Source of the DNA: Candidatus Curtissbacteria bacterium RIFCSPLOWO2_12_FULL_41_16
Lineage (GTDB): Bacteria; Patescibacteriota; Microgenomatia; Curtissbacterales; GWA2-41-24
Direction of reading: 5' to 3'
DNA: 64,000 nt
Assembly: GCA_001776545.1 (NCBI GenBank)
Contig: MFBZ01000022.1
Coordinates: 14,065 to 78,064 of the forward strand
A program made the translations under genes and the position numbers. Under the pieces are notes generated by a model. The model was not told the DNA's origin. It made no database searches and was given only the letters and a program-made list of their open reading frames with translations. Of this stretch, positions 1,018 to 26,510 are shown piece by piece (position 1 is the stretch's first letter; each line of letters opens with the position of its first letter).

Positions 1018-1051
1018 TAGTTTATACCTTAAAATATCACCATATTTGCGC

Positions 1052-1621: not shown

Positions 1622-1665
1622 GGTACAAATTTAAAATGTAAAATTTTTACTTTTTCAATTTTCAA

Positions 1666-2064: not shown

Positions 2065-2924
2065 GACAGTGCAATTAGTATTACCCCTAACACCATAATA
2101 GTTGCGCCTACTAACCTTTGCTTGAGGTTCTTTTCTTTGAAGAGAAAGTAACCAAGTAAAACACTGATGATACTGCTTGTACGTTTGATCGAAATGACAT
2201 AGGCTACTAGGGCAAGATTGATAGCGGTCATTTGAAAGGTTAAACCTAAGGCTGAGACCAAACCAATGGGAACGAGAGCCTGGACATTCTTGGAAACGGT
2301 TTGGAGGCTCTGTGTCGATCTGAGTAACATGATCGGAAACATGGCAATGGCCAAAAAGAGATTAACAGCAATTACCCAAAAGATCGGCGAAGAATTCTGA
2401 ACCCCGACCTTATCGAAATTGGCAGTAATACTCCAAATAAAAGCAACGGCCAACATCAGTCTGGGACCTTTTTGCCTGATTAAGGCTTTGAAAGGAGCAA
2501 GGTTACCTTTTCGTCTTTCTGCGATATTCAAAAAATAGGATCCTGCCACAATGAGCAGAATTCCTAATAAGCCTAAGGTCGGTGGAAACTCATGGACGAT
2601 TAGGGGTGAGGTAACCAGCAGAAATACGGGGGTAAAGGTAATCATGGGCACAGCCAGGGATAAATCTGAGAACTTGAGCGCTTTCATATAAAAGATAGTA
2701 GCGGCAATATTAAGAGTTCCACTAACTGCTAAAGCAAGCCAAAACCCGTCCCCTAGTTGGGGCATTTCTATAAACAACAGAGCCGGCAACAAAAATGGCA
2801 GGGCAAAAACTCTAAGTGACCAAGCAGCGATGTACTCGTCAACTTCTCCCAGACTCCTCTTGCTGAAAACATCTTTTAAGGACTCAAAAAGGGCAGTCAG
2901 AACTGCAAATATGAACCAACTCAT
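2061..2924 (-). CDS. EamA/DMT-family transporter
   Basis: About 10 predicted TM helices, as expected for two EamA-like halves. The start is trimmed to MSWFIFAV (ATG at 2922-2924); the longer listed ORF 2061..3131 would overlap the upstream flippase. The trimmed gene overlaps the upstream stop by 4 bp. Confidence 0.5.
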   Translation of the reverse strand: MSWFIFAVLTALFESLKDVFSKRSLGEVDEYIAAWSLRVFALPFLLPALLFIEMPQLGDGFWLALAVSGTLNIAATIFYMKALKFSDLSLAVPMITFTPVFLLVTSPLIVHEFPPTLGLLGILLIVAGSYFLNIAERRKGNLAPFKALIRQKGPRLMLAVAFIWSITANFDKVGVQNSSPIFWVIAVNLFLAIAMFPIMLLRSTQSLQTVSKNVQALVPIGLVSALGLTFQMTAINLALVAYVISIKRTSSIISVLLGYFLFKEKNLKQRLVGATIMVLGVILIALS

Positions 2925-4177
2925 GGGTTTCTCTTCTTTTTCTGGGATATGTAAAAGCCAGCAGCCAGAAGCAACATAATTAACCCTTCGGAAATTACAG
3001 TAATTGTAGCAGCAGCAAGATAACCATATTGGGGAATAAATATTAAGTTGGCCACAATGTTGAAAAGTGCCCCTGCAGCATAAATGTAAGTCAAATATTT
3101 TTGGCGGTCGTAAATAATTAATAAGTGCCAAAGGAGGGCGGAGATGAAGAAAAATGGAAGCCCTAAAGCTAAGATTCTCAATGCGGGGATAGCACCTTGG
3201 GAACTCGGACCGAAAAATAAAGGGATAAAGTATGAGATGACAAATAAAGCTGTGGCCAATATCAGTGAGGTAAAGGTGAGGATTTTTAGCCAGGAAGAAA
3301 GCTGTTTTTTGTAGACATTTTCGTTCTCTTTGTAAAGATTTGAGAGAGCAGGATAGATGGCATTTGAGAAAAAAATCGGTATGGCAAGTGACGCCTCGAA
3401 AAACAGATAGGCAAGTCCGTAAAGTCCAACTTCCGAAGACGTACGGAAATTTGCAAGAATTAAAACGTCAATTCGAAAGTAGATCAGGTTGAAGATGAGA
3501 GCAACGCCTACCGGCCACGCAGGTCCCAAGAAGCTTAAAAATTGCTGGCGCGAGAATGTTGGGGTAAAGTAAGTTTTAACGCGTCTGGCTATTATTAAGT
3601 AAGCTAAAGCTACTAGTGAAATTCCCCCTAAGACATAAGCTGTAGTATATCCAAGAATAGATTTAGTGGTGAGGGTTACGACTATAGCTGTTGCCAGGAT
3701 GATTAAATATCCAAAGGCAGCAGCAAGAGTAGAGAGATCGTAACGGAGAATTTTTTGGAAAAAGGCATTGGTGGTAGTAAAGAGGGCATGGGTGATAATG
3801 GTTGCAGAAGCAATGATGATGCCGGTTTTGACAAGAGGGCTAAAACCCGTGGCTGCGGCTTGATCGTAAGGAAGGACTTGGGTTATAGTCACTGCCATTA
3901 GAGCAAGGGTTATGCCCATTAAAATTCTCAGACCTAAAAGGGGCTTGAGGTGAGTAACTTCGTTTTCCTTGGCGATTTTGATGTAGATTGTGTTTAAGCC
4001 GAAGTCGGCAAGAGTGTAGAAGTAACCGACAAAAACAAAGATTTTAGTGAAATCGCCATATCCTGAGGCGTCAAGAGTTCTGAAAAGGACGAGGGTGATC
4101 AAAAGGGTGATTGAGGCAGTTATGCCTTTGCCGACAATTTGGGCACCCGTATTAAAGTAGATAACTTTTTTAAACAC
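2921..4177 (-). CDS. Polysaccharide biosynthesis protein / Wzx-type oligosaccharide flippase (MOP superfamily)
   Basis: 418 aa polytopic membrane protein. The N-terminus (MFKKVIYFNTGAQIVGKGITASITLLITLVLFRTLDASGYGDF) is typical of Wzx/MATE-like flippases. Confidence 0.55.
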   Translation of the reverse strand: MFKKVIYFNTGAQIVGKGITASITLLITLVLFRTLDASGYGDFTKIFVFVGYFYTLADFGLNTIYIKIAKENEVTHLKPLLGLRILMGITLALMAVTITQVLPYDQAAATGFSPLVKTGIIIASATIITHALFTTTNAFFQKILRYDLSTLAAAFGYLIILATAIVVTLTTKSILGYTTAYVLGGISLVALAYLIIARRVKTYFTPTFSRQQFLSFLGPAWPVGVALIFNLIYFRIDVLILANFRTSSEVGLYGLAYLFFEASLAIPIFFSNAIYPALSNLYKENENVYKKQLSSWLKILTFTSLILATALFVISYFIPLFFGPSSQGAIPALRILALGLPFFFISALLWHLLIIYDRQKYLTYIYAAGALFNIVANLIFIPQYGYLAAATITVISEGLIMLLLAAGFYISQKKKRNP

Positions 4178-10674: not shown

Positions 10675-10977
10675 GTGTTTACCCCAATTGGAACTTTAAT
10701 CAAAAATTTCCCTCGTCGCTCTAAAACTCCGGAGGCGGTTTTAGCATTGCAAGTTAGACAGGCTGCCAAAGAATCCTTGGGGGAAATTTGTAGAGATTTG
10801 GGAAGCGATGTTTTGGACTCTGCCAAGATCAAATCTTTTAAAAATGGGATATTAGTAATACAGGCCCCGAGTTTGCTTTGCGCAGAGCTTCAGATGCGCT
10901 CTGAGGGGCTGATACGTGAGATTAATCGGGTGTTTGCGAAAAGACTGGTAACTCATTTAAGGTTTAGGGTTGGATAA
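10675..10977 (+). CDS. DUF721/DciA-like small protein (hypothetical)
   Basis: 100 aa located after dnaN. Weak resemblance to DUF721 proteins that are found near dnaN/recF/gyrB in other bacteria. Confidence 0.35.
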   Translation: MFTPIGTLIKNFPRRSKTPEAVLALQVRQAAKESLGEICRDLGSDVLDSAKIKSFKNGILVIQAPSLLCAELQMRSEGLIREINRVFAKRLVTHLRFRVG

Positions 10978-11556
10978 GAAATTTTGAGGCTCTTCTAAAC
11001 TAAGCCCAGGATGTTGTCGGAGAAAATTTTCCAGGGTTGCCGGCGCAAAATACCAAATTTCGACAATAGTTTTGTCGAATTGGCCGGCAAAGACTAAAAT
11101 ACCTGCTTGACCCCAAAAGTGTCCTGGCGCAAAAGTTCCGTGTTCGCCATAAAGTATTTTTTCTGATTGACCGTATTTTTGGATATAATTATCAAGGGTT
11201 CCCTTTTCATTGCCAATGACTTGTTCTTTGATAAGCGCAATTGTATTTTCTGTAAACTCGACCCGATGAGGTCTAAACTCTTGATTTGATCGGTACTTGT
11301 AGATTGTTTGTTCACCGCTTCCCTCGACTCCTTCTGGAGGACCAAGGATTGATTCGAGCTTTTCTTTAGTAGTTTTACCTGCATAAATATTCCCTTGCCA
11401 CGGAGTCCCCGTGGGACTTTCCGGCCCTTTATTTTTTGATGAGAACGAGAAAATTGCTAGCAGGAACATGCCGATGGAAAGAACTCCTAAAAGCAAGAGG
11501 ATCCATTCGGATTTTAGTATATTGGCAACTCGCGTCAAACTTAGTTTCTCCATCAA
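10957..11556 (-). CDS. Hypothetical N-terminally membrane-anchored protein
   Basis: 199 aa with a single N-terminal TM helix (ILLLLGVLSIGMFLLAIFSF). It is the first gene of the minus-strand T4SS-like block. No recognisable domain. Confidence 0.4.
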   Translation of the reverse strand: MMEKLSLTRVANILKSEWILLLLGVLSIGMFLLAIFSFSSKNKGPESPTGTPWQGNIYAGKTTKEKLESILGPPEGVEGSGEQTIYKYRSNQEFRPHRVEFTENTIALIKEQVIGNEKGTLDNYIQKYGQSEKILYGEHGTFAPGHFWGQAGILVFAGQFDKTIVEIWYFAPATLENFLRQHPGLSLEEPQNFLSNPKP

Positions 11557-14500
11557 TATTCAACTCCTCCAAAAATTTGGGTTTTGGCAAAGTTGTAATG
11601 GACAGGCCTATCATTTTTGAAAGTTGTCCACCCAGGCCCAGGGTTGACCCAAGCGCCACCTGGATAACCGGACCAAGATCTGGGGTTAAAGCTGTGGGTT
11701 TTTGAAACCACATAATCACTAATCATCTCGGCAAAAGACTCTGAGGCAACGCCCCAGGTTATTTCTTGAGGGGGGAAAGGATAGGTAGGCATCAAGCCCT
11801 CCTGGTTGTAAATACCTATAAAGTTGTTGTAGATGCCGGTATTGTAGTTACCAAGCACATGGCCCATCTCATGGATAATGACATATTTGGCAAAACTGGT
11901 TGGTGTCATATTACAGGCAACGGTGATTCTGTTGCCGCCGTTTACTGTTCCGCAGACCCCACTCCCAAGTGAGCCGTCAGAGACGCGAATTAAATAAATA
12001 GTGCCGGCGTTTTGGAGCAGAGAGACAGCCTGTGGTGATTGGTCTAAGTCTTTGCAGATTTCGTCGATGTTGTTATTCTCGGTGGAAGACCAAGGGCCTT
12101 GCCGCTCAATTATTCCGCAAATTGTTGGAGGGTTACCAATGACTACTGTGGCAGTTGTATTGCCGGTGATCGTGGGTTCGCTTTCGGGCGTAGCTGTGAC
12201 TGTGACAGTATTGGCAACGACCGAATCTGAGAAGTCATGTCCGGCTTGAGTGTCGGCAGTAATAGTAAATTGACAGCTCCAAGTTGCATTGGCAGCAAGC
12301 GTCTCAGGGATTGTATCTGCACAAGGCGGTGATATCAAATTACCATTTTTATCTTGAGTTACAGTAAAGTTGCCGTTTTTGGCTTGGACTTTTAATTCAT
12401 CGGTAATTTGCAGACCTGTGAGACCCTTTTCTTTGGCTGTTAGGGTTATAAAGAAAGTAATATCAGCGGGCAATTGGTTATTTTCCAGACGGTTAGGAGT
12501 TGCTGATTTGGTTACTGTAAAAAATGGTGTTTCCCCGGGTGGAGCAATTGCTGTTGGTAAGTCTGCTTCCGGATTAAAAAAGGTGGTGGCGGTGACAATG
12601 CCGATGATGGTGCCGCCAATGGCAACGGCGCTAATGCCGCCGACAACTGGAACTGCGGCAAGGGCCGTTGAGGGAGCAAGACCGGTCAAGCCGATGACAA
12701 AATTGGCAGCACCTGAGAGGAATCCGAGTGCGCCACCGGCCGCTGCGGTAATGCCGCCCCAAACGGTAGAAGCAGCGCCAGTAAAAAATCCGCCGATGGT
12801 ACCGATAATCCCGCTGGTTGTTCCTGTTGCTACACTGGTTGTGCCGGCGAAGAAGTTTTTGATTTGGATCAAGCCGCCGGCTGCCAGCCAGCCAATGCCA
12901 GCGCCAATCGCGGCGCCAATGGGGCCTCCTAAGATAAATCCGATAGCCGCGCCAGTGCCAATTGCTCCGATGGCGCTAAGAACATAATGACCAATAACGT
13001 AGCCAAGTGCGCCTCCGATGAAAGATCCGATATAAGCACCGGCAATGACACCAACGAAGGTTCCCAATGGACCGAAAGCACTGCCTAAGATTCCACCGAC
13101 GACTGCTCCGGTTGTGCCACCGACACCAACACCAATGCCGGCGGTGACGGCAGTTGGCGATCCGGTGAATAAACCCAGGGCAATTGCGCCACCAACTGTT
13201 CCACCAACTATCCCCCCAGTGAACATGCTTAGAGGGATGACTACGGGAGCGGCAAGTAGTCCAAACGGACCGAGGGCGACACAGATGCCAATACCGACTC
13301 CAAGACCGATGGTTGCCCCAATGGTTGCGCCGATTAGAAAACCTGTGAAAGCAGCCTGTCCTAGAGCTAGAAAGAAGAGTCCAAGGCCGCCTAAGACGGC
13401 GCCGGCAATATTTCTGATTTTGTGGCCGATCCCTAAGACTATGCCGGCTGGAGTGAAGCCGATAACACCAGCTGGGGCTATGCCCATGCCAAATGACGGC
13501 GCAAGGCTGGTGACTGAGAATCTAAAGCCGGGGTTTATCTTGCCAAAAAAGGAAAGACTTCCGGGGGCAATGGAGGTAAAAGCCGCGCGGGGGCCAAAAC
13601 AGGGGCTGTTGATAATGGTTTGTGGTCTAAAATAATCAAGTCGATACTCCCAAAAGGATTGGGCGCTGTAGGTTGCTTGAAGTAATGCTAGGCGATCTCT
13701 AAAAATATTGCGAAAGGCGGATGCCCTTTTGGGTTTTTTGAGGGCAAGTTCTTGGGCTTTTTGTAACTTGGCTAATTTGATCCGAGACGTTAGGTAAATT
13801 TTTCTTTCCCGATTGGTTAATGACATTTTCTTTTTAAAGTTTCCGGCCTCTAATGTTGTTTTTTTAAGTTCTCTGTTTAGCCACTCCTGATCATGAGCAA
13901 GAAGTGCCAGTTGGGCATCGGACAAATTTTTATCGGAGGATAGAACTAAGCCAGAACCGGTAGGGAGTCGGAACTTTTGTTCGGGTAAAACTTTTGGTGG
14001 TGCCAGTCTTAAATTGGTTGCTAGGGGAGCGGTTAAATTGCCATAGCCGATTTGTAGGCCTACTCTTTTGACACTCTCATTTTGAGAAATCGCTGTACCT
14101 ATTTTAGCTGTAGCTTTGTTGTGGGCGATTTCTTTGTATTTCTGAAGATCTTCAAATGAAGGAATTGTTGTTGGCGAAATCTTTGGAATCTGGCTTGCGA
14201 ATTCGTCAAGATAAGTAACAAGGTAAGTACCAAGACTTGCTTTGAGAATCTCTTGACTTTGGGGAGTAGCAAGAGGTGCGCTAGTTTCTATGATTTGTTT
14301 AACGTTATCTGAAATAGTGTTTAAAGTTTCTTGGGAAGGTTTTCTAAACGTACTGAGCTCTGTAAGTGATCCTAAAACTGCAGATTTTTCCAGTTGAGGC
14401 TTAAGTGATTCGGCGATTTGTGAGGTAATTGGTGTAACTTTTTGGATAAGTTTTTCTTCGTTGAGTTGAATTTCTGGGGGAAGAGTTTTATCTGGGTTTT

Positions 14501-15176
14501 TGGCAGGAAATGATTTGGAAATTGCTGGGCCTAGGTCTGGGTCTGCGATTAATGTTTGAATGACTGAGTCGGTGATGACATCTTGAGTTTGGGCAAGGTC
14601 GGCAATCTTGGGTATATTTTCAAGTGTTTCACGGGTTACTTCATTGGCGATTTCTTCGGAAATTTTGGCTAGTTGATCTTGAGGAATGTCTTTGATGCCT
14701 AAGGACGTGATAAGTGTTTGGACCTGAGGTGTTAATGCTGAAGTTAGCTTGACGGCCGTTTCTTGTTGATGTTTTCTTAATATTGGTTCGATGGCCTCAA
14801 GTTCGGCCAGAACTCCGAGCGCGGACGGACGACCTTTGGCGGCTTTGGCAGCGGTTAGATCTTCACCAGTGAGTCTTGGTACTGCCGACTCCCTTGGTGT
14901 TTCCAGTTTTTGTGATATTTCGTCGATGACCTCCTTGATTTTTTGTTGGTCGCCGACTATTTTTTGAAGATCAGTGGTTTTGAATCTGCTATAAATCCAG
15001 GTGTCGATTTCGTCCGCTGATATTAATTCCAAACCGGTGAATTGTTTCTGGAGCTCTTTTAAACCCGGTAGTTTTTTACCGTTGCCACGCTTAGGATCCA
15101 GTAAATAGTCGATCGACCAAGTTACGGCTTTGAGAAAGAGGGCGGTATCGAGTTTCGCGGCAGCTTCGGCAGGCAT
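11553..15176 (-). CDS. Giant membrane/surface protein with glycine-zipper segment and C-terminal HExxH zinc-metalloprotease motif
   Basis: 1207 aa. The N-terminal ~500 aa are charged and coiled. The central ~300 aa consist of (G/A)xxxG glycine-zipper TM repeats. The C-terminal part contains VIIHEMGHVLG (HExxH), encoded around 11860-11890 on the minus strand, plus Ig-like beta-rich regions. Confidence 0.6.
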   Translation of the reverse strand: MPAEAAAKLDTALFLKAVTWSIDYLLDPKRGNGKKLPGLKELQKQFTGLELISADEIDTWIYSRFKTTDLQKIVGDQQKIKEVIDEISQKLETPRESAVPRLTGEDLTAAKAAKGRPSALGVLAELEAIEPILRKHQQETAVKLTSALTPQVQTLITSLGIKDIPQDQLAKISEEIANEVTRETLENIPKIADLAQTQDVITDSVIQTLIADPDLGPAISKSFPAKNPDKTLPPEIQLNEEKLIQKVTPITSQIAESLKPQLEKSAVLGSLTELSTFRKPSQETLNTISDNVKQIIETSAPLATPQSQEILKASLGTYLVTYLDEFASQIPKISPTTIPSFEDLQKYKEIAHNKATAKIGTAISQNESVKRVGLQIGYGNLTAPLATNLRLAPPKVLPEQKFRLPTGSGLVLSSDKNLSDAQLALLAHDQEWLNRELKKTTLEAGNFKKKMSLTNRERKIYLTSRIKLAKLQKAQELALKKPKRASAFRNIFRDRLALLQATYSAQSFWEYRLDYFRPQTIINSPCFGPRAAFTSIAPGSLSFFGKINPGFRFSVTSLAPSFGMGIAPAGVIGFTPAGIVLGIGHKIRNIAGAVLGGLGLFFLALGQAAFTGFLIGATIGATIGLGVGIGICVALGPFGLLAAPVVIPLSMFTGGIVGGTVGGAIALGLFTGSPTAVTAGIGVGVGGTTGAVVGGILGSAFGPLGTFVGVIAGAYIGSFIGGALGYVIGHYVLSAIGAIGTGAAIGFILGGPIGAAIGAGIGWLAAGGLIQIKNFFAGTTSVATGTTSGIIGTIGGFFTGAASTVWGGITAAAGGALGFLSGAANFVIGLTGLAPSTALAAVPVVGGISAVAIGGTIIGIVTATTFFNPEADLPTAIAPPGETPFFTVTKSATPNRLENNQLPADITFFITLTAKEKGLTGLQITDELKVQAKNGNFTVTQDKNGNLISPPCADTIPETLAANATWSCQFTITADTQAGHDFSDSVVANTVTVTATPESEPTITGNTTATVVIGNPPTICGIIERQGPWSSTENNNIDEICKDLDQSPQAVSLLQNAGTIYLIRVSDGSLGSGVCGTVNGGNRITVACNMTPTSFAKYVIIHEMGHVLGNYNTGIYNNFIGIYNQEGLMPTYPFPPQEITWGVASESFAEMISDYVVSKTHSFNPRSWSGYPGGAWVNPGPGWTTFKNDRPVHYNFAKTQIFGGVEY

Positions 15177-15278: not shown

Positions 15279-17099
15279 CTAGAATTGTTTTAAAACGGCG
15301 GCCGATTTTTTCTGCATCTCCAGAAGCTCTTCGGGCTTGGTGGTTACTAAATAGTGTTCGTCTTCCGAGGCGACTATACGAATGGCGACATGGTTTGGTC
15401 CGGCAAAGAAGATGCCTTCACCAACGTCGGCTGCCAGAAGTAAGTGCTTTTCGCCTTCTGATAGATAAAAGACTTCGGCGATCTGATCGATGGCGGCTGG
15501 CGATTGTTTTAGGAGAATCTGGATTGAAGAATTAGTGACGATAGCCTTACCATAATCGGTTCTTAGAAAGTCGGTAACATCCTGAGTGATAGTGGTCAGA
15601 CCCAGATAATACTTTCTGGCCCTTTTGGCGATACTGTACATGAAGGTAGCGCTGTCAGGGTACTGCATCATATACCAGGCCTCATCGACAATGAGAAGGC
15701 GCTTTCTAATATTGTTTTTAATTCTGGTCCAGATAAAGTCTAAAATCAAATACATGGCAATTGGCCGCAGCTCATCCTCCATGTCTTTAATAGAAAAGAC
15801 AGTAAAAGTATTTTTAATGTCGATATTGCTTTGTTGGTTAAAAATGCCAACCAGCGAGCCTTTAACAAATTTCTCAATGCGATCGGCAAGACCGCGGGCG
15901 GCCTGATCTTCCATGCCAAGAAGTATTTTATAGAGATCTTCCATTAGAGGAGGTTCGTTTTTTTGAGTTGCCGGATCAGGGGTAATCCCTTTGGCTTTAT
16001 AGGTGGCAACTAAGGCTCGGTCTAAAAGAGCATCTTCAGTCGGAGTTAAATTGCCCATGATGACTTTGAAAAGTCCATGCAGAGAAAGAATTTTTAGACC
16101 AAGTTCATTTTCGCCTTCTTCATAAACACCGGAGAGGTCAAATGGATTGATTTTAGCGGGTGAGTTGAAATTAAAAGTAATATATTCCCCGCCGATTGCC
16201 TCACAAAGATTTTTATATTCTTCCTCCGGATCGATGACGATAATTTCAGTACCGAACATTAGGGAGCGAAGAGCTTCGAGCTTCACCAGATACGATTTGC
16301 CGGCACCGGATTTGGCAAAAATGACGGAATTGGCGTTTTCTAAAGAAAAGCGGTCAAAAATCACCAGAGAGCCGTTGTGTTCATTGATCCCATACATAAT
16401 GCCGGTATTTGAGGTTAGTGATGAGGAGATGAAAGGGAAAGTGGTCGCAAGGGAGGTGGTATCCATGTTGCGTGTAATATAGATATGGTCAGTGCCCTGC
16501 GGCAGGGTAGTTTTGAAAGCCTCTTCCTGCTGGAGAGTGGCATGTTTGGGGACTAAAAGCAGTGAGCCCAGGGTTGACTCTACTTGTTTGGTGATGGTAT
16601 CCAGTTCTTCACGACTGTCGGCAGGGATAGTGACATAGAGGGCAAACTGAAAGAAGCGTTCGGCTCCTTTGACTAATTCTTCTTGTAGAACCTGTGCATC
16701 TTCCAAAGCAGCTTGGACGGCCGGGTCGAGAACGCGGCCATGTTGGATATCGGTGGCGATGGTAGCTTCCATTTCGGTGATTTTGCGCTTGAGATCATCA
16801 AGAACTCCCTTTGCCTCGACCGGGTAAGAGTACATGGCAATTTCCAGAGTGTGTTCGAAATTAATTAAGGGAGCAAGCCAATTAGCCTGCACAAATCTGG
16901 GGTAGCCTACGACAAAAAGGGTCCTAAAATATGTTGAGCCAACTTTAATGAAGTCGAAATCGACTTCAATTGCCGGAGGCGCAATGATGTCTTTAACTGA
17001 GACGATGCCAGTCGCAAGTGTTTGAACCCACTGCTTCTGCTTATCGGAAAGCTGGGTCTCTCCTGTTTTTTTAGGCGCAAATGGGTTAAATATGCTCAT
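15279..17099 (-). CDS. VirB4/TraC/TrbE-family type IV secretion ATPase
   Basis: 606 aa with Walker A AKSGAGKS and Walker B LLIVDEAW. Size and motif order match VirB4-like conjugation ATPases. Confidence 0.8.
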   Translation of the reverse strand: MSIFNPFAPKKTGETQLSDKQKQWVQTLATGIVSVKDIIAPPAIEVDFDFIKVGSTYFRTLFVVGYPRFVQANWLAPLINFEHTLEIAMYSYPVEAKGVLDDLKRKITEMEATIATDIQHGRVLDPAVQAALEDAQVLQEELVKGAERFFQFALYVTIPADSREELDTITKQVESTLGSLLLVPKHATLQQEEAFKTTLPQGTDHIYITRNMDTTSLATTFPFISSSLTSNTGIMYGINEHNGSLVIFDRFSLENANSVIFAKSGAGKSYLVKLEALRSLMFGTEIIVIDPEEEYKNLCEAIGGEYITFNFNSPAKINPFDLSGVYEEGENELGLKILSLHGLFKVIMGNLTPTEDALLDRALVATYKAKGITPDPATQKNEPPLMEDLYKILLGMEDQAARGLADRIEKFVKGSLVGIFNQQSNIDIKNTFTVFSIKDMEDELRPIAMYLILDFIWTRIKNNIRKRLLIVDEAWYMMQYPDSATFMYSIAKRARKYYLGLTTITQDVTDFLRTDYGKAIVTNSSIQILLKQSPAAIDQIAEVFYLSEGEKHLLLAADVGEGIFFAGPNHVAIRIVASEDEHYLVTTKPEELLEMQKKSAAVLKQF

Positions 17100-18100
17100 A
17101 CCGTTTTTCTTGATTCCGACTGCACGTTGTCGGGAGTACCCACAATTGTGTCATTGGCATTTTGTTGCGGTCGGACGATTTGGGCAACCCTGGCGGTTGC
17201 CTCCTGAAGGTTTTTTAAAGCCTCTACTTGATTATCGGTCGCTGGTCTTTGAGGTACTGGTCTTAAATTTGGACCAGTTTCGTTAAGAGGGTAAGCAGCA
17301 GCCGGCTGGGTTGGTAGGGAAGTTGGGTAGGCACTAAAGGGTTGGTTCGCAGTAATTTGTGACTTGTCGTCTGCTATTTTTGACTGCTCAGTGGCGGGGA
17401 CCGGATTCGGGCCAGAAGGCGGCGGAGCCGGCGAGGGGATTTCAACGGCCGGTTCAACTATCGGGGTGGTGTATGAGGAGGTGTCCAGAAGAATTCTTTG
17501 GGTTCCGGTCGGCGCCGGGTTGTAGATATCGTAGAAAAGCTCGATTAATTCTTGGGTAGTTAATTGTCTGGCCGAAAGTCCTAACCTGGCCATTTGTTTG
17601 ATTAAATGATCACGTTTGGGCAAAAGCGCGATTTTGGCGTCGGCAATAAGCTGCGATTTACCGCCGCTTTTAGTTGGTTTTCTGCCAGTAATGTTTTTGA
17701 AACCGAGTTCAAGCGGGGAGAAGTTAATGATTAAATAAAATTTTTTATCAAGAACCGTTTTTTGCTGGACAGTCGACTCTATAAAATCCAGATATTTTTG
17801 GATTTGTCTTTTAAGATCAGGGTTTGGTTGGGCATGTTCGGCCTCGGAGAGGCTGGCAAAATACGAGGTAATGTCAGCTTTTTTGGAGCGAATAAGAACT
17901 TCTACCGGAAAGGTTAATGAGTTTAGAAGAGCACCATAGGCATAAATCGTGGCATCCTGTTCGGCTTCAGACAAGAGGTCAAAGTTAACGGCAGTTAAAG
18001 ATAAGACAAGAGCAACCCAACCGGTTTTTAAAATTACCAAGTCGTCTATAATATTCTCTATGTCTAAATGTTCTTGAGTAGAGGCTTTAGTTTTTGCCAT
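17096..18100 (-). CDS. Hypothetical protein with a Pro-rich C-terminus (T4SS-locus associated)
   Basis: 334 aa with a 4-bp start/stop overlap with virB4-like. The C-terminal third is Pro/Gln-rich and low-complexity. No assignable domain. Confidence 0.4.
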   Translation of the reverse strand: MAKTKASTQEHLDIENIIDDLVILKTGWVALVLSLTAVNFDLLSEAEQDATIYAYGALLNSLTFPVEVLIRSKKADITSYFASLSEAEHAQPNPDLKRQIQKYLDFIESTVQQKTVLDKKFYLIINFSPLELGFKNITGRKPTKSGGKSQLIADAKIALLPKRDHLIKQMARLGLSARQLTTQELIELFYDIYNPAPTGTQRILLDTSSYTTPIVEPAVEIPSPAPPPSGPNPVPATEQSKIADDKSQITANQPFSAYPTSLPTQPAAAYPLNETGPNLRPVPQRPATDNQVEALKNLQEATARVAQIVRPQQNANDTIVGTPDNVQSESRKTV

Positions 18101-18109: not shown

Positions 18110-19666
18110 TCAGTCCTTTGCTTTGACTTCCAGCGGAGCTAAAATTTGGCCTTCTAAGTTGATAGTGAAAGGCTCGAAGTGGGCCTGTTCACTTTCAATT
18201 TCTACTGAATACTTTCCGTTGGCAAGGGAGGTGACTGAAAGAAACTGTCCGAGTTTGTTGGTTTTAAGGGCACGAACGGGAATGCCATTTTCATCTCTGA
18301 CGATAATGATTGCACCAACAATTGGAGTATTATCTTTGCCACTTGTGGCCTGTCCCGAGAGAGTATTTGGATTAGTGGTTAGAGGAATGATTTTGGCCTT
18401 ACCAAGGCCGGCTGCAATTGAGGTTACGTTGGGATTTTGGCCTACAATAGAGATTTTCGAGTCGGCTATTACCTCTTGTTGCTTGAAGGAGGCATTTTGA
18501 GGAGCTGGTCTCTGGTTTGGTTTTGGAACAAAGTAGGCTTGTTTTGCATGAGCTGCGCGTTGGGTGTGTTTTTCAAAAGAGGTTGTGGTGGCCTGATGAG
18601 ATGGACCAGTCCAGACCGGAGGCTGGTTGCCTTTGGCTGGTTTCGGCTGGGGCTCATTAGTTATTGGTTCTGTAGTTTCCGGGAACCGGAAGCGCTTTTT
18701 AAGCTCTTCGGAAATCTCGAATCTGCGCTCGCCCCTGACTGGTAATTTCGACAGGTCAAAATCGACAGGCGGCGCAAAGTGAAGTTTTCTGACCCTGGTT
18801 TTGCCGACTGGCGGCAAAAAGGCTAGACGTTTGTCTGGCGTTTTAATGGGAATGACAAATTCCTGAGAGAAGTTGATATCTGAGGCCAGGTGACGGGGGT
18901 TTTTAGTTTCCTCTTCTTTCGGAGTGGAGTCTGAGAGCATAAGGAGTTCGACGGGGCCAGCATGGCCCGGGCCAAGTTTGGTTTCAAGGCCAGGGAGTAC
19001 GTAAGGCTTGGCATGGGAAGAAATTTTAACTGATGTGCGGGGTGAGAACATAATTGGAGGTTTGGTAGAAGGCAAGGATTCGGGCATGGGGGGAGTTTGG
19101 GCCAGGGTTAACTGGGGCACGGCTTTGATTTGGGGCAGGGCTTCTGAATAAAAGAGAATTGGCGCGGGTAGCTTTCCTTTGGGCACTTGTCCATATTCTT
19201 GGAGTTCAAGTCTTTGGAGCGCGATTTGCTCTTTGACATCAAGTGGCGCTACCTGACCCTTAGGGAGTGAACGTAAATAAGCAAGGAGCCTGGAGCGGCC
19301 TTGGGCGGTGGTTGTTTCTGGAGGATGTTTTTCGGGCAATGGGGCAGAGGTGACAACATTTAAGAACTCTGGTGTTTTTGATTCCTTAATCCAGGTGCGC
19401 AGCGTTGGTGAAAGAACGGAGCGGATAAAGGCGACTAACCATTTATCCAGTGGACGGCCGCCGAATGGCACAAGAGCGGCGATAAAGCCCAGAACGGCGA
19501 AGATGAGACTGGCGGGAATTTTTAAAATTGGGGCGAGAGGAGAGAAAAAAATCAAGGCGGCGACAGAGAGGGGAATTGCCAATGTTATAAACTGGCGAAC
19601 AGTCAGGTTACCAAAAAGTTTAAATTCAAAAGAAGCAATATGTTGCGGGACAGGATGTTGTTCCAT
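18110..19666 (-). CDS. PrgI/VirB3-like membrane protein with a long C-terminal extension
   Basis: The N-terminus (MEQHPVPQHIASFEFKLFGNLTVRQFITLAIPLSVAALIFF) plus a second TM helix resembles the PrgI (VirB3-like) family of Gram-positive T4SS. The remaining ~400 aa are Pro-rich and end in a beta-sandwich-like segment. Confidence 0.5.
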   Translation of the reverse strand: MEQHPVPQHIASFEFKLFGNLTVRQFITLAIPLSVAALIFFSPLAPILKIPASLIFAVLGFIAALVPFGGRPLDKWLVAFIRSVLSPTLRTWIKESKTPEFLNVVTSAPLPEKHPPETTTAQGRSRLLAYLRSLPKGQVAPLDVKEQIALQRLELQEYGQVPKGKLPAPILFYSEALPQIKAVPQLTLAQTPPMPESLPSTKPPIMFSPRTSVKISSHAKPYVLPGLETKLGPGHAGPVELLMLSDSTPKEEETKNPRHLASDINFSQEFVIPIKTPDKRLAFLPPVGKTRVRKLHFAPPVDFDLSKLPVRGERRFEISEELKKRFRFPETTEPITNEPQPKPAKGNQPPVWTGPSHQATTTSFEKHTQRAAHAKQAYFVPKPNQRPAPQNASFKQQEVIADSKISIVGQNPNVTSIAAGLGKAKIIPLTTNPNTLSGQATSGKDNTPIVGAIIIVRDENGIPVRALKTNKLGQFLSVTSLANGKYSVEIESEQAHFEPFTINLEGQILAPLEVKAKD

Positions 19667-19866: not shown

Positions 19867-20510
19867 CTAGTGTTTTGCAAGCATTGAAAGTTGATATCTT
19901 TTGACTTCTGTGAAGATCTTATTCTTGGCTTTTTCCCAAGAGAAGTCCGCGTCAAGGACTTTAATCGACCTGGGATATTTTTCTTTTTCAGCATCCTCAA
20001 GATAGATTAGTGCGCGCAGAATGAGCATCAGTTGATAGCCAGGGTACTTTTTAATAGCGAAGTTAATAAGTTCTCCTAGCGTGTAGAAGTTGAGAAGATA
20101 ATAGATGTCTATAAAATCGCGCCTTGTGCCCCCTTGAATAATGGCAGCCAGTTTCATGGCGGCAACGTCAGCAAGACTAGCAATACTTATGTCTTGATAT
20201 TGTTTCAGAGGTTCAAGTAGTTGATACGAATAGTAAAAAAAGAAAGTTCTGTTTCGCCTATAATACTTTTTAAGGTATCTTCTGCCGTAAGTAGCGTTTT
20301 GGCATTTGGGAAAGTTTTTTTAATGTCTTTGGCAAGTCGAGGACTTGGGAATTTTTTTTGACTATAGAAGTCAAAGTCGATGGATGTCCGGTGACCAATC
20401 TGCAGTGCTAGTGCTGTGCCGCCGGCGAGATAGAAACCCGGGGCCTTTGGCAATTTCAGCTCTTTGACTATTGCAAGCTGATTTTTATTCAGAATGTGCG
20501 AATGCATCAA
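19867..20510 (-). pseudogene. AbiEii/AbiGii-like nucleotidyltransferase toxin, split by a frameshift
   Basis: Piece 20205..20510 carries GFYLAGGTALALQIGHRTSIDFDFYS (GGTAL...D.D nucleotidyltransferase motif). Piece 19867..20157 carries RRDFIDIYYLL and ALIYLEDAE, which are AbiEii C-terminal motifs. The two pieces lie in different frames. The downstream frame remains open upstream of its ATG and reads ...PLKQYQDISIASLADVAA. A T7 homopolymer (~20217-20224) lies just before the upstream stop at 20205. Confidence 0.45.
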
Positions 20511-20833
20511 ATTTTGAAAAGTTTTTTGTAGAGATTAAGATTTGCGTTAGGGTCCAGATTAATGTAGGCTAACTCTTGTTTAAACTTGGGAGCTTCAACA
20601 CCCAAAATTTTTTGCCAATAAAGCAGGCTTATTTTGTACCACATGCCCCTTCTTGGGTTTCGCAACACACGTCTAATGCCGTTGAGGCTGTAATTGTTAA
20701 ATAGCCATAAAACGGCTTTTTGATCACCGAGATTTAAAACTTGGGTGATGATAGTTTCCTTATGGCGTTTTTTCTCCATTTTTTTAATATCGTAAGACCA
20801 AAGATATGGTTGCAAAAAGTTAGGGAGAGCCAT
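20507..20833 (-). CDS. Putative cognate antitoxin/partner of the AbiE-like NTase (hypothetical)
   Basis: 108 aa. Its stop overlaps the NTase start by 4 bp (ATGA), the classic arrangement for a TA operon. No confident family assignment. Confidence 0.35.
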   Translation of the reverse strand: MALPNFLQPYLWSYDIKKMEKKRHKETIITQVLNLGDQKAVLWLFNNYSLNGIRRVLRNPRRGMWYKISLLYWQKILGVEAPKFKQELAYINLDPNANLNLYKKLFKI

Positions 20834-20970: not shown

Positions 20971-23900
20971 ATGGCAGAAGTACCTTTGCGTCCGACATTG
21001 CCGGGGGATGAGGAGCCCAGAAGAGTTCCCGGAACTGATGGCCCGTCTCGACTTGGTCGATCCGAGGCGGACGAGGAAAAACGCGCAGAAAAAGTCAAAG
21101 ACCTTAACCAGGAGGCGAAAGAGAAGAGATTAAGAGAGGAGCAAAAAAGGGCATATGAGTTTGTCAAGGAAGCTAAAAAGAGGATTGAAGAGACTAAAGC
21201 AAGAGGCGAGCAAGAAAAGATTCGATACAAGGAAGCGAAAAGTTATCTGGAAGCAGTTTCGTCACTTCAGGACGAAAACCCAGTAATAATTAACCCCGAA
21301 GAGCTTAAAACCTACAAAGATTTGCTTATGAAGCACGGCTATCTTAAGGCTTCCGAGATTAATAAATTAGAGCCCGCCCAGGTAGTGGTTATTTTTCAGG
21401 CAGTGGCCCGAGAGGTGGGGTTTGAAGAACCACAAGAAGAGGATTTTTCTTACACTGAAGGAGAAAATCGAGAGCTGGAGAGAAAAAGAGCAAAGAGTTT
21501 AATCAGACAAGCAGAAAGTGTCGACGAGGAAACCTTAAATGTAGAAAAAGTGGGGCAAAATTTAACTGTTGAGGAATTTGAAAAGGCGGCTGAACGTAGC
21601 GGGCCGGGGACGATGGAGAGACCAGAAAGAAAGGCTGAAGCTCATGAGGGGGAACCAGTTTCATTCATTGTCCAGTCGCGGAAACATCTGGCGGTTTTAT
21701 CTCAGGAAGATGTTGCGCAAATTTGTGAAGCACAGGTCGTGCCTGAACAAATTATCGTTGAGGCGACTTCTGGATGGGAAGATAAGGACTATGTTGACCG
21801 CGGGGAGGCTCTTAGGAAGAATGGTATTTTTAACACTCAAGAACTGACGGCCGAAGGGGTAAAATCCGAGAGGTCTGTAAGCGATGCTCAGGCGGGATCC
21901 GAGATTGTTTATGAGGATAAAGCGAAAAAGATTTTAGTCAGTCAGTCGCCATCTGGCAAATATTATGTTGTTGGAGTGACTGATTTGGAGCCAGAGACAA
22001 TAGGGGATTTATTAAAGAGAGCCAATATTGAAAAAGAGCTAAAGCCCCCTAAAGATTGGCAGGCTATGAGTTTCCCCGAAAAGCGGCAATGGTATAAGGA
22101 GACGGGTATCGAAGTGGTCCCGGTATTTTCAGGGGGTGGTACTCGTTGGGGTGACAATGATCGGATAAGTGAAATAAAAGCGGCAAGTCGTCTAGAAACA
22201 TTACATGCTGTCGAGGAAGATTTATTCCAGCAAGGATTAACCAGCGGGCTTAGCGAAGAAGATGCAAAAAGAGAAGCGATACGACAGCTCGAAGCGGAAG
22301 GAGATCGTACCGAGCTGGGTGAGCATTTAGGGCGACTCAGGAATGCCGAGGTGATCTTGCAGAATTTATTCAACGATTCAGTGAGAGGGATCAATGTTCG
22401 CGGGACGCCACAGATGGCTGATTTGGACTCTTTAATTGCTTTTATTCGTAATTATGGCAGGCAAAACTACAGGTTTGTTAATCAGTTTAATCAGGCGGTG
22501 GAGGGTATTGCTTCGTCTGCGGAAGCAGCTGGGCAACTGGCAGCATTGCATCGTTTTTTGCCTGCAAATGTTATTGCGGAACTAAGTAGGATTCGTAGGG
22601 ACGTGCATGACGATTGGCAGCGAGTCTATAAAGCTATGGATCCCAAGATCAGAGACAGGCTCTTCCAAAGACTCAAAGAAGAAACGCAAAGTTATGCCCA
22701 GTCGCTTCGGGCAGGATTTTATGGGACAAGAGAAGTTGAGGCGCGACTGGCACCGACTATTTTAGAGGAATCCAGAAAAGAATTACTAGGGCAAGAAGGG
22801 TTTATAGAATGGCGGGCCACAATTGAAATTGAGGGAATGAAGACTAACCAATTGGAAGCACTTTTAAAGGGGCCGCCAACAGACTGGCGGGAATCTGAGA
22901 GCCATTTAAATAGCATTTTAAGATTTGTGGAATCTACAGATTTTACCCCAGAGCAGATAAGTTCTGCCTTGCAAAGGGCGGTTGCTATTCCAGAGTCGAT
23001 CCCCATCGGAGTACTAACGGGAGATGAATTGAGTGAGGCAAAAGAAATGCAGGATAGGTTAAATAGAATCCTTAAGGCAACTCAGGCAATGCACACTTTG
23101 AGGGTAACAGCGGAGCGCGCGAGCCTAAATCCGGAGGCTATCGGCAAGGTTTTTGAAGGGTTTGACGACGAGACATTCAGAATTTACTTTAGCCGTTTTG
23201 CCAAGGATGCCTATGGGAAAGATTTTGAATTCAAGGATGCAGCCGGAAACATACAAAAATTCAATCTTTTGGATAAAGCACTGCAGGAGATTTTCAAGAG
23301 ACTGAAGAGGGAAAGAATAGATATGAATTTGGTTGAAGAATTATCAAGGTACGATATAAGTCGGAAGTTAACAGCAGGTGAATTGAATGATATTTGGAGC
23401 AGATGGTACAAACGAACGGGGATAATGGGGACCTTGCCAGAGGTAAGAGGTCGGCTGGAGGAGTTAAGAAAAGAGATGGTTTCGAGGATAAGTAGAAGAG
23501 GCTGGGACTCTTCTGATTGGGCGACTAATTTTGACCGCAAAAAGGCGGTGATTGGCGGGTGGCACGTAGAGGCTAATCTTTTAGGTGTAACCAAAGGGAA
23601 GGCTCGCCCGACACCAGGAAGGCCAATGGGCGAAAGGTATTTTGATCAACGCAGACGAGAACTAAGCGAGAGCTTAGAAATGATTTTGCAAGAGCCGGTG
23701 ATCGGCTTGACCGCGCAGCAGATTAAGGATTTAAGAAATACGGGGCTTTTGGATCAGGTTAACAATAATGCTTACTATCTTGCTTGGACTCTGGCTTTTT
23801 CAGAATACGATACGATTAGGGTTTGGGATAATGGCAGACGTGATGCTTTCGGCAATCAAGGAGACTGGCGAGATATAGTTAAAAGTTGGGATTCAAGCAA

Positions 23901-24876
23901 CTGGTACGGTTTCCATGTCGATCACCTGCCGGAATTTTATCTCAATGAAAATCGGGGTAGGCCAAATGATGTGAACCAGGTTTTATGGAAGCACATGCTG
24001 GGTAAAAGAAGGAAGTATGTTTTGCCGCAGTTGCGATTTTTGGTCAGAACAATAGGCCAGTGCGGGCTTTTAGAAGGGGGGAACGATCCGGAAGCATGGG
24101 GGAACGATCCGGAATTGCGTACCGCGGTGAATAATAAAATGACTGAGCTTTTTGAGGCTCATCGTGCCGAAACCGGTTTGGATTTTGTAGAAGGCAATGA
24201 TGAGGCAAGAGGTTGGGCAAGCGGGGCAGCGATAGCGGAGTTGATTATGAACGGCGATGATGTTATTCCTTTTGACAAGCTTAATTGGAGTGAAGTTTTT
24301 GAAAGATTGGACTGGACTAGCGATTATCAAAAGGAGGAAAGTAACATAAGCAAATATAATTTAATCGATATTTTTGATGACCGGACTCAAGGCCGGCGCT
24401 ATTTTGGTGCAGATCATCTGCAGGCCTATTTGGGGCAGCCGAGTACAGCCAGATTTATGGATGTTAACAGCCGCGAAAAGTTTTATTCCAAAAGGAACGT
24501 GCGCATTTGGCCTTGGATGAAAATGGTTTTGCCAGCCCATAGAGAAATTGGCCATTATTGGAAAAGATGGTTTAAGATGCCCGAGAGGATGCCACTTGCA
24601 GAAGCTGAGGGGGCGGTCGATCTGGCTGTTCAGACTGGAGTATTGGACCCCAAGAGTGTATATCCTCTAAAGAGGCAAATGTTAGGTGTGCGACTGGGTG
24701 CATTTCATATCCCTGGGTGGTGGTGGTTACGAGGCTTAAGGGAGTCAGGGGAGGCTACTCACATTCTCGCTAAAGAGACGGGGAGGGGATATCTGACTTC
24801 GCCTTTGGGGATGTTTTTTGAGTTTCTTCGGCAATTATTTAAGTATAGTGCCGGTGCTTTGGGTGGGCAGTCTTAA
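20971..24876 (+). CDS. Giant hypothetical protein (1301 aa), candidate secreted/T4SS-associated protein
   Basis: Single long ORF on the opposite strand to its neighbours. The N-terminal ~120 aa are extremely K/E/R-rich and coiled. No TM helix and no recognisable catalytic motif. Confidence 0.55.
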   Translation: MAEVPLRPTLPGDEEPRRVPGTDGPSRLGRSEADEEKRAEKVKDLNQEAKEKRLREEQKRAYEFVKEAKKRIEETKARGEQEKIRYKEAKSYLEAVSSLQDENPVIINPEELKTYKDLLMKHGYLKASEINKLEPAQVVVIFQAVAREVGFEEPQEEDFSYTEGENRELERKRAKSLIRQAESVDEETLNVEKVGQNLTVEEFEKAAERSGPGTMERPERKAEAHEGEPVSFIVQSRKHLAVLSQEDVAQICEAQVVPEQIIVEATSGWEDKDYVDRGEALRKNGIFNTQELTAEGVKSERSVSDAQAGSEIVYEDKAKKILVSQSPSGKYYVVGVTDLEPETIGDLLKRANIEKELKPPKDWQAMSFPEKRQWYKETGIEVVPVFSGGGTRWGDNDRISEIKAASRLETLHAVEEDLFQQGLTSGLSEEDAKREAIRQLEAEGDRTELGEHLGRLRNAEVILQNLFNDSVRGINVRGTPQMADLDSLIAFIRNYGRQNYRFVNQFNQAVEGIASSAEAAGQLAALHRFLPANVIAELSRIRRDVHDDWQRVYKAMDPKIRDRLFQRLKEETQSYAQSLRAGFYGTREVEARLAPTILEESRKELLGQEGFIEWRATIEIEGMKTNQLEALLKGPPTDWRESESHLNSILRFVESTDFTPEQISSALQRAVAIPESIPIGVLTGDELSEAKEMQDRLNRILKATQAMHTLRVTAERASLNPEAIGKVFEGFDDETFRIYFSRFAKDAYGKDFEFKDAAGNIQKFNLLDKALQEIFKRLKRERIDMNLVEELSRYDISRKLTAGELNDIWSRWYKRTGIMGTLPEVRGRLEELRKEMVSRISRRGWDSSDWATNFDRKKAVIGGWHVEANLLGVTKGKARPTPGRPMGERYFDQRRRELSESLEMILQEPVIGLTAQQIKDLRNTGLLDQVNNNAYYLAWTLAFSEYDTIRVWDNGRRDAFGNQGDWRDIVKSWDSSNWYGFHVDHLPEFYLNENRGRPNDVNQVLWKHMLGKRRKYVLPQLRFLVRTIGQCGLLEGGNDPEAWGNDPELRTAVNNKMTELFEAHRAETGLDFVEGNDEARGWASGAAIAELIMNGDDVIPFDKLNWSEVFERLDWTSDYQKEESNISKYNLIDIFDDRTQGRRYFGADHLQAYLGQPSTARFMDVNSREKFYSKRNVRIWPWMKMVLPAHREIGHYWKRWFKMPERMPLAEAEGAVDLAVQTGVLDPKSVYPLKRQMLGVRLGAFHIPGWWWLRGLRESGEATHILAKETGRGYLTSPLGMFFEFLRQLFKYSAGALGGQS

Positions 24877-26409: not shown

Positions 26410-26510
26410 GCAGACTGAAAGGACTCCTTTTTGGGAAGGCTTAATTTAATAGTAGCACGTGGGGAAATACGCAACAAGTAACACGTAACAGGTGACAGGT
26501 GGCAGGGTGA

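Follow-up and report, generated by a model that had tools for sequence, protein, structure and literature searches.

The VirB1 homologs of type IV secretion systems (T4SSs) in Gram-positive bacteria are membrane-anchored proteins with extracellular enzymatic domains, and one of them, PrgK, also has a sizeable intracellular domain (PMC12857230). The T4SS loci of Patescibacteria are characterized by their proximity to dnaA, by pilin arrays (in Microgenomatia and Saccharimonadia) and by a TrsD component, and VirB6 homologs are scarce in Microgenomatia (PMC12102498). The system was found to be essential for epibiotic growth in one species tested. A 2025 survey revealed that VirB1 homologs are not consistently associated with virB4 in most classes of this phylum and suggested other hydrolases as substitutes, including those encoded after virB4 in Southlakia epibionticum (PMC12102498). 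In strain ML1 of this species, the gene directly downstream of virB4, SEML1_0007, encodes an essential 1113-aa protein with a Hedgehog/DD-peptidase fold at its C-terminus (Wang et al. 2023, Tables S1 and S2), and the product of the next gene combines a Cys proteinase domain with two domains of the lysozyme-like type (Wang et al. 2023, Table S2). Here we describe a gene located directly downstream of virB4 in a 64,000-nt stretch of DNA (referred to as the window) from Candidatus Curtissbacteria bacterium RIFCSPLOWO2_12_FULL_41_16 (contig MFBZ01000022.1, positions 14,065–78,064).

The gene occupies positions 11553–15176 on the minus strand and, as stated in a preliminary description of this DNA, encodes a protein of 1207 aa. 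Its ATG codon is the true start, since the orthologs align from residue 1. The protein is composed of four parts: (i) a Pro-rich N-terminal region, (ii) a glycine-zipper membrane region of ~315 aa, (iii) a beta-sandwich stalk and (iv) a C-terminal domain containing the sequence HEMGH (referred to as the head). Searches with the complete 1207-aa sequence against Pfam, NCBIfam and PHROGs gave no significant match (PG_binding_4 and YgjP-like remained below threshold), and only noise was obtained against sequences of the PDB. Full-length orthologs are present in the related loci L019 (1209 aa, 48% identity) and L003 (1144 aa, 39% identity). By its position and architecture the protein is an analog of the VirB1/PrgK class, although it is not a member of this class by its catalytic domain. 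The most probable interpretation is that it is a T4SS-associated, membrane-anchored envelope hydrolase of the PrgK/VirB1 type (a scaffold plus an M34-like head), in which the catalytic head has been replaced by a peptidase similar to anthrax lethal factor (LF) and to the Pro-Pro endopeptidases (PPEPs), and which is accompanied by a head-matched partner.

The protein resembles PrgK (pCF10) and TraG (pIP501) in that an intracellular N-terminal part, a membrane anchor and an extracellular enzymatic domain appear to follow one another, a topology that for the window protein is deduced from its sequence. Moreover, in sister genomes the same scaffold bears M23 (LytM-type) or CHAP domains, i.e. families that also occur in PrgK and TraG. 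In pCF10, prgK follows prgJ (virB4), in the same way as the window gene follows virB4. In contrast to both proteins, the head encoded in the window is an M34-like HExxH gluzincin instead of an SLT, muramidase, LytM or CHAP domain; the anchor is a multi-span glycine zipper of ~315 aa instead of one transmembrane (TM) helix; the protein has a beta-sandwich stalk; head and downstream gene form a cassette that is exchanged as one unit; and sequence homology is not detectable. Comparison with the published description of SEML1_0007 shows that the two proteins share a location between virB4 and dnaN/dnaA within a Patescibacteria T4SS locus, a similar size and a C-terminal zinc-peptidase-type head of ~155–190 aa, but this head is of the Hedgehog/DD-peptidase (M15-like) type in SEML1_0007 and M34-like in the window.

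A metagenome scan based on VirB4 identified 80 loci, and heads and partners were compared in 46 related loci, all with the same Gly-rich scaffold encoded after virB4. In nearly every locus with enough downstream DNA, virB4 is directly followed by an open reading frame (ORF) of 550–1600 aa whose central part is hydrophobic and Gly-rich. A hydrolase joined to such a membrane scaffold, first thought to be unusual, is the general design of the gene located after virB4 in these loci, and it is the type of hydrolase that is unusual. At least five head types are found among the related loci: Peptidase_M23 (31 loci; Pfam 3.8e-17 for L011), CHAP (7 loci; Pfam 1.7e-9 and 8.6e-4), the M34-like head (the window, L003/L015, L019, L047 and L005; detected with a family hidden Markov model), a head without a Pfam match (two loci; also in L001) and singletons (two loci). 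The head designated “LYS?” of L001, L026 and L048 has no Pfam match, and its lysozyme/SLT-like label, taken from “YYNGG”-type motifs, is tentative. The M34-headed gene immediately follows virB4 in the window and in L003, L005, L019 and L047, and is part of the same cluster in L006 and L007.

The conserved scaffold comprises residues 1 to ~1020, beyond which the head differs between loci. In BLASTP comparisons with M23-headed proteins, the alignment of the window protein starts at residue 1 (or ~110) and stops at 1020–1034. The homology to the M23-headed orthologs ends at the junction motif IGNPPTIC (aa 1013–1020; positions 12117–12140, minus strand), and the sequence (V/I)xIGNPPxC, with which the stalk closes, is common to M34-headed proteins, M23-headed proteins and the stand-alone HExxH homolog P0002. 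On a VirB4 distance tree, loci with different heads are interleaved: the nearest neighbor of L019 (M34-like) is L017 (M23; 93% VirB4 identity), and that of the window is L011 (M23; 90%). Because of this interleaving, the agreement between head and partner types described below is not simply the result of clade structure.

The preceding stalk, which is conserved across the family, spans aa 886–1013 (positions 12138–12521, minus strand). It is all-beta in an AlphaFold2 (AF2) model of residues 870–1207 (mean predicted local distance difference test score, pLDDT, of 89) and Thr-rich, and Foldseek matched it to Ig-like/FnIII-like sandwiches; weak matches to DUF7507 were found in the relatives P0015 and L084. 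The Cys-containing beta-rich segment that had been placed next to the HExxH motif is present, but according to the AF2 model it is this separate beta-sandwich domain (~886–1013).

The gene located downstream of the scaffold gene (positions 10957–11556, minus strand) encodes a membrane-anchored protein of 199 aa (p199), for which only a weak DUF4309 match was obtained. The stop codon of the scaffold gene and the start codon of p199 overlap in the sequence TGATG (11553–11556), and a Shine-Dalgarno sequence, GGAGGAG, is placed 10 nt upstream (11560–11570), within the last codons of the scaffold gene. This arrangement suggests that translation of the head gene and of p199 may be coupled. Orthologs of p199 follow every HExxH-bearing gene. 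The product of the gene located after the scaffold always has an N-terminal TM anchor, and the type of its ectodomain fits the head type in 46/46 loci: M23 heads are accompanied by a family of ~340–357 aa (29/29 loci), M34-like heads by the p199 family of 189–199 aa (6/6) and CHAP heads by a third family (7/7). Members of the ~340–357-aa family (e.g. L011, 13411–14466; L044, 13204–14247) are without a Pfam match.

The locus L001 (positions 2–3011), from a syntenic relative, contains two modules in tandem. The first consists of a scaffold with a Pfam-negative head followed by its 195-aa partner. In the second, a stand-alone HExxH protein of 236 aa, which has a signal peptide and has kept the junction (IIIGSPPTTNC), precedes a 184-aa homolog of p199. 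The second pair resembles an orphan cassette. Since the head and the downstream gene are exchanged together, p199 is a head-specific partner and could be a regulator/inhibitor or an immunity protein. A role as a VirB8/PrgL-like component was considered but is not supported by sequence, as a profile of p199 compared with the PDB gave no match to VirB8, PrgL or TraM, and only a weak one to DUF4309/YjgB.

These observations also resemble what would be expected of a polymorphic effector and its immunity protein, with a T4SS-tied scaffold delivering a variable hydrolase against the envelope of the host bacterium or of competitors, and the downstream protein conferring immunity on the producer and its kin. 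As in polymorphic toxins (CdiA-CT/CdiI, Rhs, LXG), a conserved N-terminal part and the junction IGNPPxC are followed by an exchangeable C-terminal enzyme, the small downstream gene tracks the head in all 46 loci, and the pair found in L001 downstream of a differently headed one may be an orphan module. The interleaving of head types among near-identical VirB4 lineages points in the same direction, as does the much faster evolution of the scaffold protein: between the window and L003, VirB4 is 89% identical, compared to 33% for the N-terminus, 32% for the membrane region, 48% for the stalk and 68% for the head. The T4SS is, moreover, essential to epibiotic growth in Saccharibacteria. Unlike the polymorphic toxins, however, the carrier encoded in the window is polytopic and located inside a core T4SS operon; the head would be tethered to the membrane of the producer by the polytopic anchor and the short stalk, and neither a release/cleavage site nor a translocation signal was identified. 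Membrane-anchored M23, CHAP and SLT heads are wall hydrolases typical of housekeeping assembly factors, namely the Gram-positive VirB1 homologs, the partners belong to no recognizable immunity-protein family, and a head-specific regulator would yield the same co-variation. We consider an effector–immunity pair unlikely. It is likewise doubtful that a polymorphic weapon or tool is built into the T4SS, in which the conserved glycine-zipper scaffold encoded next to virB4 would present interchangeable envelope-degrading heads (M23, CHAP, lysozyme-like and M34-like), each with a cognate membrane-anchored immunity protein and tuned to the chemistry of the host envelope that the epibiont has to breach. 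If this were true, the head type would be a determinant of host range, and the M34-like head would be the first LF/PPEP-type peptidase recruited against a bacterial envelope.

The catalytic head of the presumed PrgK/VirB1-like hydrolase is the C-terminal domain (aa 1014–1207; positions 11556–12137, minus strand), whose metalloprotease-like character had been recognized in the preliminary description and is borne out by a zinc-peptidase fold. The HEMGH sequence (positions 11859–11873, minus strand; translation checked) contains H1102, E1103 and H1106, i.e. two candidate zinc ligands and the putative catalytic base; given the His and Glu content of the protein, 0.004 HExxH motifs would be expected by chance. 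These three residues are invariant in 148 of 152 aligned homologs (97%; every sequence covering the site). A candidate third zinc ligand, the presence of which had been left to be checked, was found in Glu1146, placed 40 residues past His1106 in a conserved E-x-F-A-E motif (E1146-S-F-A-E1150; positions 11727–11741, minus strand), as is characteristic of gluzincins. Tyr1132 (positions 11781–11783, minus strand) may stabilize the transition state; it is conserved in 89% of the homologs (within T-Y-P) and invariant in A2 and A3. The corresponding values for E1146, F1148, A1149 and E1150 are 98%, 91%, 85% and 93%, which gives the family signature HExxH...TY...ExFAE. By analogy with known enzymes, H1102, H1106 and E1146 would bind zinc, E1103 would act as the general base and Y1132 would assist, and the catalytic mutants of PPEP-1 in the PDB are, according to the entry titles, E143A/Y178F. 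The domain is presumably a zinc-dependent endopeptidase. Of the two groups named in the preliminary description, metzincins and gluzincins, the latter was retained (the fold matching PPEP-1/2/3 and LF), and the former was rejected, as the third-His position of the metzincin motif HExxHxxGxxH is occupied by Asn1112 (HEMGHVLGNYN; 55% of the family have N here, and a conserved His does not occur).

An AF2 model of the head alone was of high quality (pLDDT 93.8; predicted TM-score, pTM, 0.91), and places HEMGH within a helix (residues 83–101 of the domain model). In a Foldseek search of the PDB with this model, the top 40 matches were almost exclusively PPEP-1/2/3 and anthrax LF, e.g. PPEP-2 (6fpc), PPEP-3 (9g0j), PPEP-1 (5a0x and others) and LF (1pwv), with a probability of 1.0, TM-scores of 0.50–0.54 and ~215 aligned columns; sequence identity to the PPEPs is just 13–16%. 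A fold search with the two-domain model was set aside, as it was dominated by beta-sandwich matches, with M1 aminopeptidases at a TM-score of ~0.2. Comparison of a sequence profile with PDB sequences identified 9urd_A (E = 1.3e-3), LF (E = 5.6e-3) and PPEP-1 (E ~ 0.06), the matches extending from HExxH toward the C-terminus, with HEMGH aligned to HEFGH of LF and E-S-F-A-E to E-F-F-A-E of LF and E-D-F-V-E of 9urd_A. The last of these, a [quoted passage not shown], is the best profile match, aligned from before HExxH through E-D-F-x-E, and a putative zinc-binding metallopeptidase of Bacteroides (4l7a) is among the structural matches; unlike the window protein, both are lipoproteins tied to nutrient import in Bacteroidota, without a link to T4SSs. 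The window protein does not match Pfam ATLF (PF07737), and the best relative in this respect, P0002, reached only 13.6 bits (E = 0.056) with a cut-off of 27.4. The head is, according to the models and alignments, M34-like in its fold and catalytic motifs, yet a separate, unannotated sequence family.

An exhaustive HMMER search of 1.84 billion representative sequences with a three-sequence profile revealed 183 homologs, compared to only two relatives obtained by a word-indexed search. The HExxH domain is nearly always placed at the C-terminus of proteins of 600–1500 aa, and the homologs (~180 sequence clusters) are annotated as “hypothetical protein”. One relative, P0028 (MBI3342258.1, Candidatus Curtissbacteria), is named “sulfite exporter TauE/SafE family protein”, and its Gly-rich hydrophobic region is the probable cause of this mis-annotation. 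In some homologs the HExxH domain is fused to Peptidase_M23 (P0110, P0140) or to Amidase_2, an N-acetylmuramoyl-L-alanine amidase domain (P0063). In the proteins P0009 (aa ~330–480) and P0096, the stalk and the HExxH head are separated by an additional Cys-rich domain with an “AIWYEES/AIWIAES” motif; this SLT-like region gave no match in the PDB or Pfam, and its resemblance to lytic transglycosylases is a motif-level lead only. A search of viral folds (BFVD) returned only generic zincin matches and did not connect the protein to lysins or tape-measure proteins of phages, and an analogy with tape-measure proteins (helical N-terminus, Gly-rich hydrophobic segment, lytic head) is an unsupported idea.

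The similarity to the PPEPs and LF (MEROPS M34) includes the fold of the whole domain, HExxH plus Tyr and Glu in E-x-F-A-E (EFFAE in LF), a domain size of ~190 aa as in the PPEPs, and an extracellular location (presumed for the window head). The window head differs from these enzymes in its additional Cys pairs, in its fusion to a membrane scaffold within a T4SS operon, in its score below the ATLF threshold and, judging by context, in a substrate that may be the cell wall. This similarity also allows the head to be viewed as a PPEP-1-like surface protease, which would cleave proteins instead of peptidoglycan, e.g. T4SS pilins or other secreted proteins encoded in the locus, or would shed adhesins, thus switching the cell between an attached and a free state. 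The closest solved structures are indeed those of Pro-Pro endopeptidases and LF, in entries with bound peptide substrates, and possible substrates are encoded in the locus, namely the six pilins and the large secreted proteins rich in Cys. However, at the same position the orthologous scaffolds bear true peptidoglycan hydrolases, the HExxH domain is fused elsewhere to M23 or Amidase_2, and at 13–16% identity the specificity of the PPEPs is not transferable. Furthermore, M23-headed loci would lack such processing, yet pilin arrays are common throughout Microgenomatia and Saccharimonadia (PMC12102498). A protein-directed surface protease of this kind seems to us distinctly improbable.

In the protein viewed as a PrgK/VirB1-like hydrolase, the head is preceded by a large N-terminal part and by the membrane region. 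The N-terminal region (aa 1–545; positions 13542–15176, minus strand) is soluble, rich in Leu, Ala, Lys and Glu, and probably cytoplasmic; no signal peptide was detected at the N-terminus of the 1207-aa protein. The initial suggestion that this region is coiled was not upheld, as it contains 34 Pro residues in 545 aa, with no heptad signal in any 28-residue window (by a crude test, not COILS), and only three stretches of ~35 aa free of Pro and Gly, all at residues 410–517. Residues 401–500, with 23 K/R, include a basic, Pro-free stretch located just ahead of the membrane region. The N-terminal region matches no Pfam family and is fast-evolving and clade-specific: it is 31–36% identical to that of the orthologs, and no homology was found between the N-termini of the window clade and the P0015 clade (jackhmmer; hhalign probability 0.1%).

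The membrane region (aa 555–870; positions 12567–13514, minus strand) consists of roughly 10–13 hydrophobic segments, with 24% Gly, 15% Ala and only 3 charged residues in the 307 positions between 562 and 868. The glycine-zipper segment of ~300 aa noted in the preliminary description has a statistically real periodicity: 35 GxxxG motifs were counted, compared to 18.9±3.3 in composition-preserving shuffles. Among Gly-Gly pairs, an excess was seen at two spacings only, i+4 (z = 4.7) and i+8 (z = 3.8), those of 1, 2, 3, 5 and 6 being at or below the shuffle mean, and since the enrichment is confined to these two spacings, the zipper is more than an effect of composition. It may serve helix packing or oligomerization. 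Weak matches to the Pfam family Gly-zipper_Omp were found in the relatives P0001 and P0028. The long run of Gly and Ala codons (GGN/GCN) has two further consequences: the plus-strand ORFs 12370–12987 and 13045–13635 are Pro-rich antisense artifacts and not genes, and the local GC content rises over 12001–14000 (0.50 compared to ~0.42).

The membrane region can be aligned with that of the orthologs at 32–48% identity, the indels being entire Gly-rich stretches. Across the family the membrane span varies from 28 aa (one TM segment) to ~340 aa, and within the Curtissbacteria-like clade from 245 to 340 aa; in orthologs of other clades the zipper is replaced by one to four TM segments (e.g. a single one in P0015). 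The charge bias and the hydrophobic region fit a putative N-in/C-out layout. The basic juxtamembrane segment, the single-TM orthologs and the secreted stand-alone homologs (P0002 and others have N-terminal signal peptides) all point to this topology, and the HEMGH domain is thus probably extracytoplasmic.

It is very improbable that the ~300-aa zipper is the functional core of the protein, forming a pore that perturbs membranes or a translocon subunit of the VirB6 type, to which the peptidase would be accessory: its periodicity is real, its length is kept in the Curtissbacteria-like clade (245–340 aa) and VirB6 homologs are scarce in Microgenomatia (PMC12102498), but one to four TM segments suffice in other clades, so that a large bundle is not required for the core role, the region varies by indels of entire Gly-rich stretches, a separate 506-aa polytopic protein is a candidate VirB6, and the 1207-aa protein shows no similarity to TrbL/VirB6, PrgH or any pore former in Pfam, NCBIfam and PDB sequence searches.

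Taken as a PrgK/VirB1-like hydrolase, the protein would function as follows. The N-terminal ~545 residues would form a cytoplasmic part at the foot of the secretion machine, near VirB4, TrsD and PrgI, as suggested by gene order and charge distribution, and the long bundle of glycine-zipper helices (~10–13 segments) would pack to form the membrane anchor. The stalk, a beta-sandwich by prediction, would hold the zinc endopeptidase outside the membrane, where a gluzincin of the anthrax LF/Pro-Pro endopeptidase type, with a chemistry assumed by analogy from its conserved residues and fold, would do the cutting. Its targets may be peptide bonds of the cell envelope (peptidoglycan stem peptides or cross-links, or wall-associated proteins), whose cleavage would let the channel or pilus of the T4SS pass. 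An envelope substrate is proposed because the same scaffold in sister genomes bears M23 or CHAP peptidoglycan hydrolases at the same place. Independent support for a role at the wall comes from the fusions of the HExxH domain to M23 or Amidase_2 in other family members, from the enzymes encoded after virB4 in S. epibionticum and from the architecture of the Gram-positive VirB1 homologs. The head appears to be a cassette that is swapped after IGNPPxC along with the next gene, and p199 would most simply be an inhibitor or regulator that limits self-damage. Among the roles initially offered for the protein, a surface protease on an anchor fits best, a pore is without specific support, and an effector can be retained only in the polymorphic-toxin-like form discussed above.

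Several points weigh against this interpretation. We know of no member with an M34-like fold that cleaves peptidoglycan. The characterized M34 members cut proteins: MAPKKs (mitogen-activated protein kinase kinases) in the case of LF, and Pro-Pro bonds in surface adhesins in the case of the PPEPs, and the titles of the matched PDB entries show peptide substrates only. The role in wall hydrolysis rests on position and domain swapping and not on any property of the head itself. Heads differ between genomes at 90–93% VirB4 identity, although the walls of such cells are presumably similar, so that an enzyme acting on the wall of its own cell would not obviously be expected to vary in this way, and the VirB4 tree is a simple neighbor-joining tree of identity distances with no support values. 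As regards the anchor, the number of hydrophobic segments is approximate (~10–13), leaving their odd or even parity ambiguous, and the ~300-aa expansion of the zipper in this clade is unexplained, since one TM segment suffices in orthologs.

The T4SS itself, as well as the peptidase and lysozyme homologs located after virB4 in one saccharibacterium, have already been published. In the literature searched, there was no report of the M34-like head family, the glycine-zipper scaffold, head swapping at the junction or strict head–partner pairing, and none linking PPEP-like/M34 peptidases to Patescibacteria or describing glycine zippers in Gram-positive T4SS components. The VirB1 substitute in loci of the Microgenomatia type is probably this large scaffold protein encoded after virB4, with its exchangeable head (M23, CHAP or M34-like) and matched partner gene. 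This would extend the LF/PPEP fold to a new biological setting and provide a handle on how ultrasmall cells cross their own wall or that of the host, and the correlation between head and host becomes a testable question.

The T4SS-like locus reported in the preliminary description was evident from the genes directly upstream, all on the minus strand, and from a pilin array. The scaffold gene is preceded by that of a 606-aa VirB4-like ATPase (15279–17099; Pfam P-loop_TraG, 1.9e-29, and AAA_10; 66–90% identity across related loci), which is preceded by genes of a 334-aa TrsD/TraC-like protein (17096–18100) and of a 518-aa PrgI (VirB3-like) protein with a C-terminal extension (18110–19666; Pfam PrgI, 2.4e-9). 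The 334-aa protein has no significant Pfam match of its own, and is assigned through homologs in L005 and L006 that match PF26593 (TraC-like), in agreement with the TrsD component of PMC12102498. On the other side, dnaA and dnaN are placed just past the p199 gene. The locus is thus chromosomal, next to oriC, and has the layout published for Patescibacteria T4SSs (PMC12102498). The nearest genomic relatives are metagenome-assembled genomes of Candidatus Curtissbacteria, with identical synteny in L003. Similar surroundings were found for more distant homologs: the gene of P0015 is placed directly after those of PrgI, TraC-like and VirB4 proteins, P0065 is clustered with PrgI, TraC-like, VirB4 and dnaA, and the M23+HExxH fusion P0110 is encoded beside a pilin gene and a homolog of the window 506-aa polytopic protein.

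Upstream of the PrgI gene, at 19867–20833 (minus strand), two short ORFs match different parts of an AbiEii toxin (split or degraded) and are followed by a DUF6922 gene. This group, inserted between the PrgI gene and the remaining part of the T4SS locus, looks like a decayed type IV toxin–antitoxin insertion. Midway in the locus and in opposite orientation (20971–24876, plus strand), there is a gene for a highly charged protein of 1301 aa without a Pfam match. The next region (24889–29981, minus strand) encodes three large proteins without a family match: the 506-aa polytopic protein, a 460-aa protein ending in CPECGMEATCG, which has the look of a zinc ribbon, and a Cys-rich secreted protein of 590 aa. 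The first of them (24889–26409, minus strand) has a signal peptide and a Gly-rich C-terminus; it gave no Pfam or PDB match that would mark it as VirB6, and we infer it to be a candidate divergent VirB6. Its homolog in L007 adjoins the M23+HExxH protein.

Six T4SS pilin (VirB2-like) genes are located at 30143–33219 (minus strand), with Pfam matches to T4SS_pilin (PF18895; 1.6e-11 to 6.8e-4) and TrbC. The product of the last gene of the array (344 aa) has a pilin-like C-terminus, which is preceded by a large extracellular domain. Just past the array, at 34313–35953 (plus strand), a secreted protein of 546 aa is encoded, which combines an N-terminal coiled-coil-like region with a peptidoglycan-remodeling SpoIID domain (1.9e-11).

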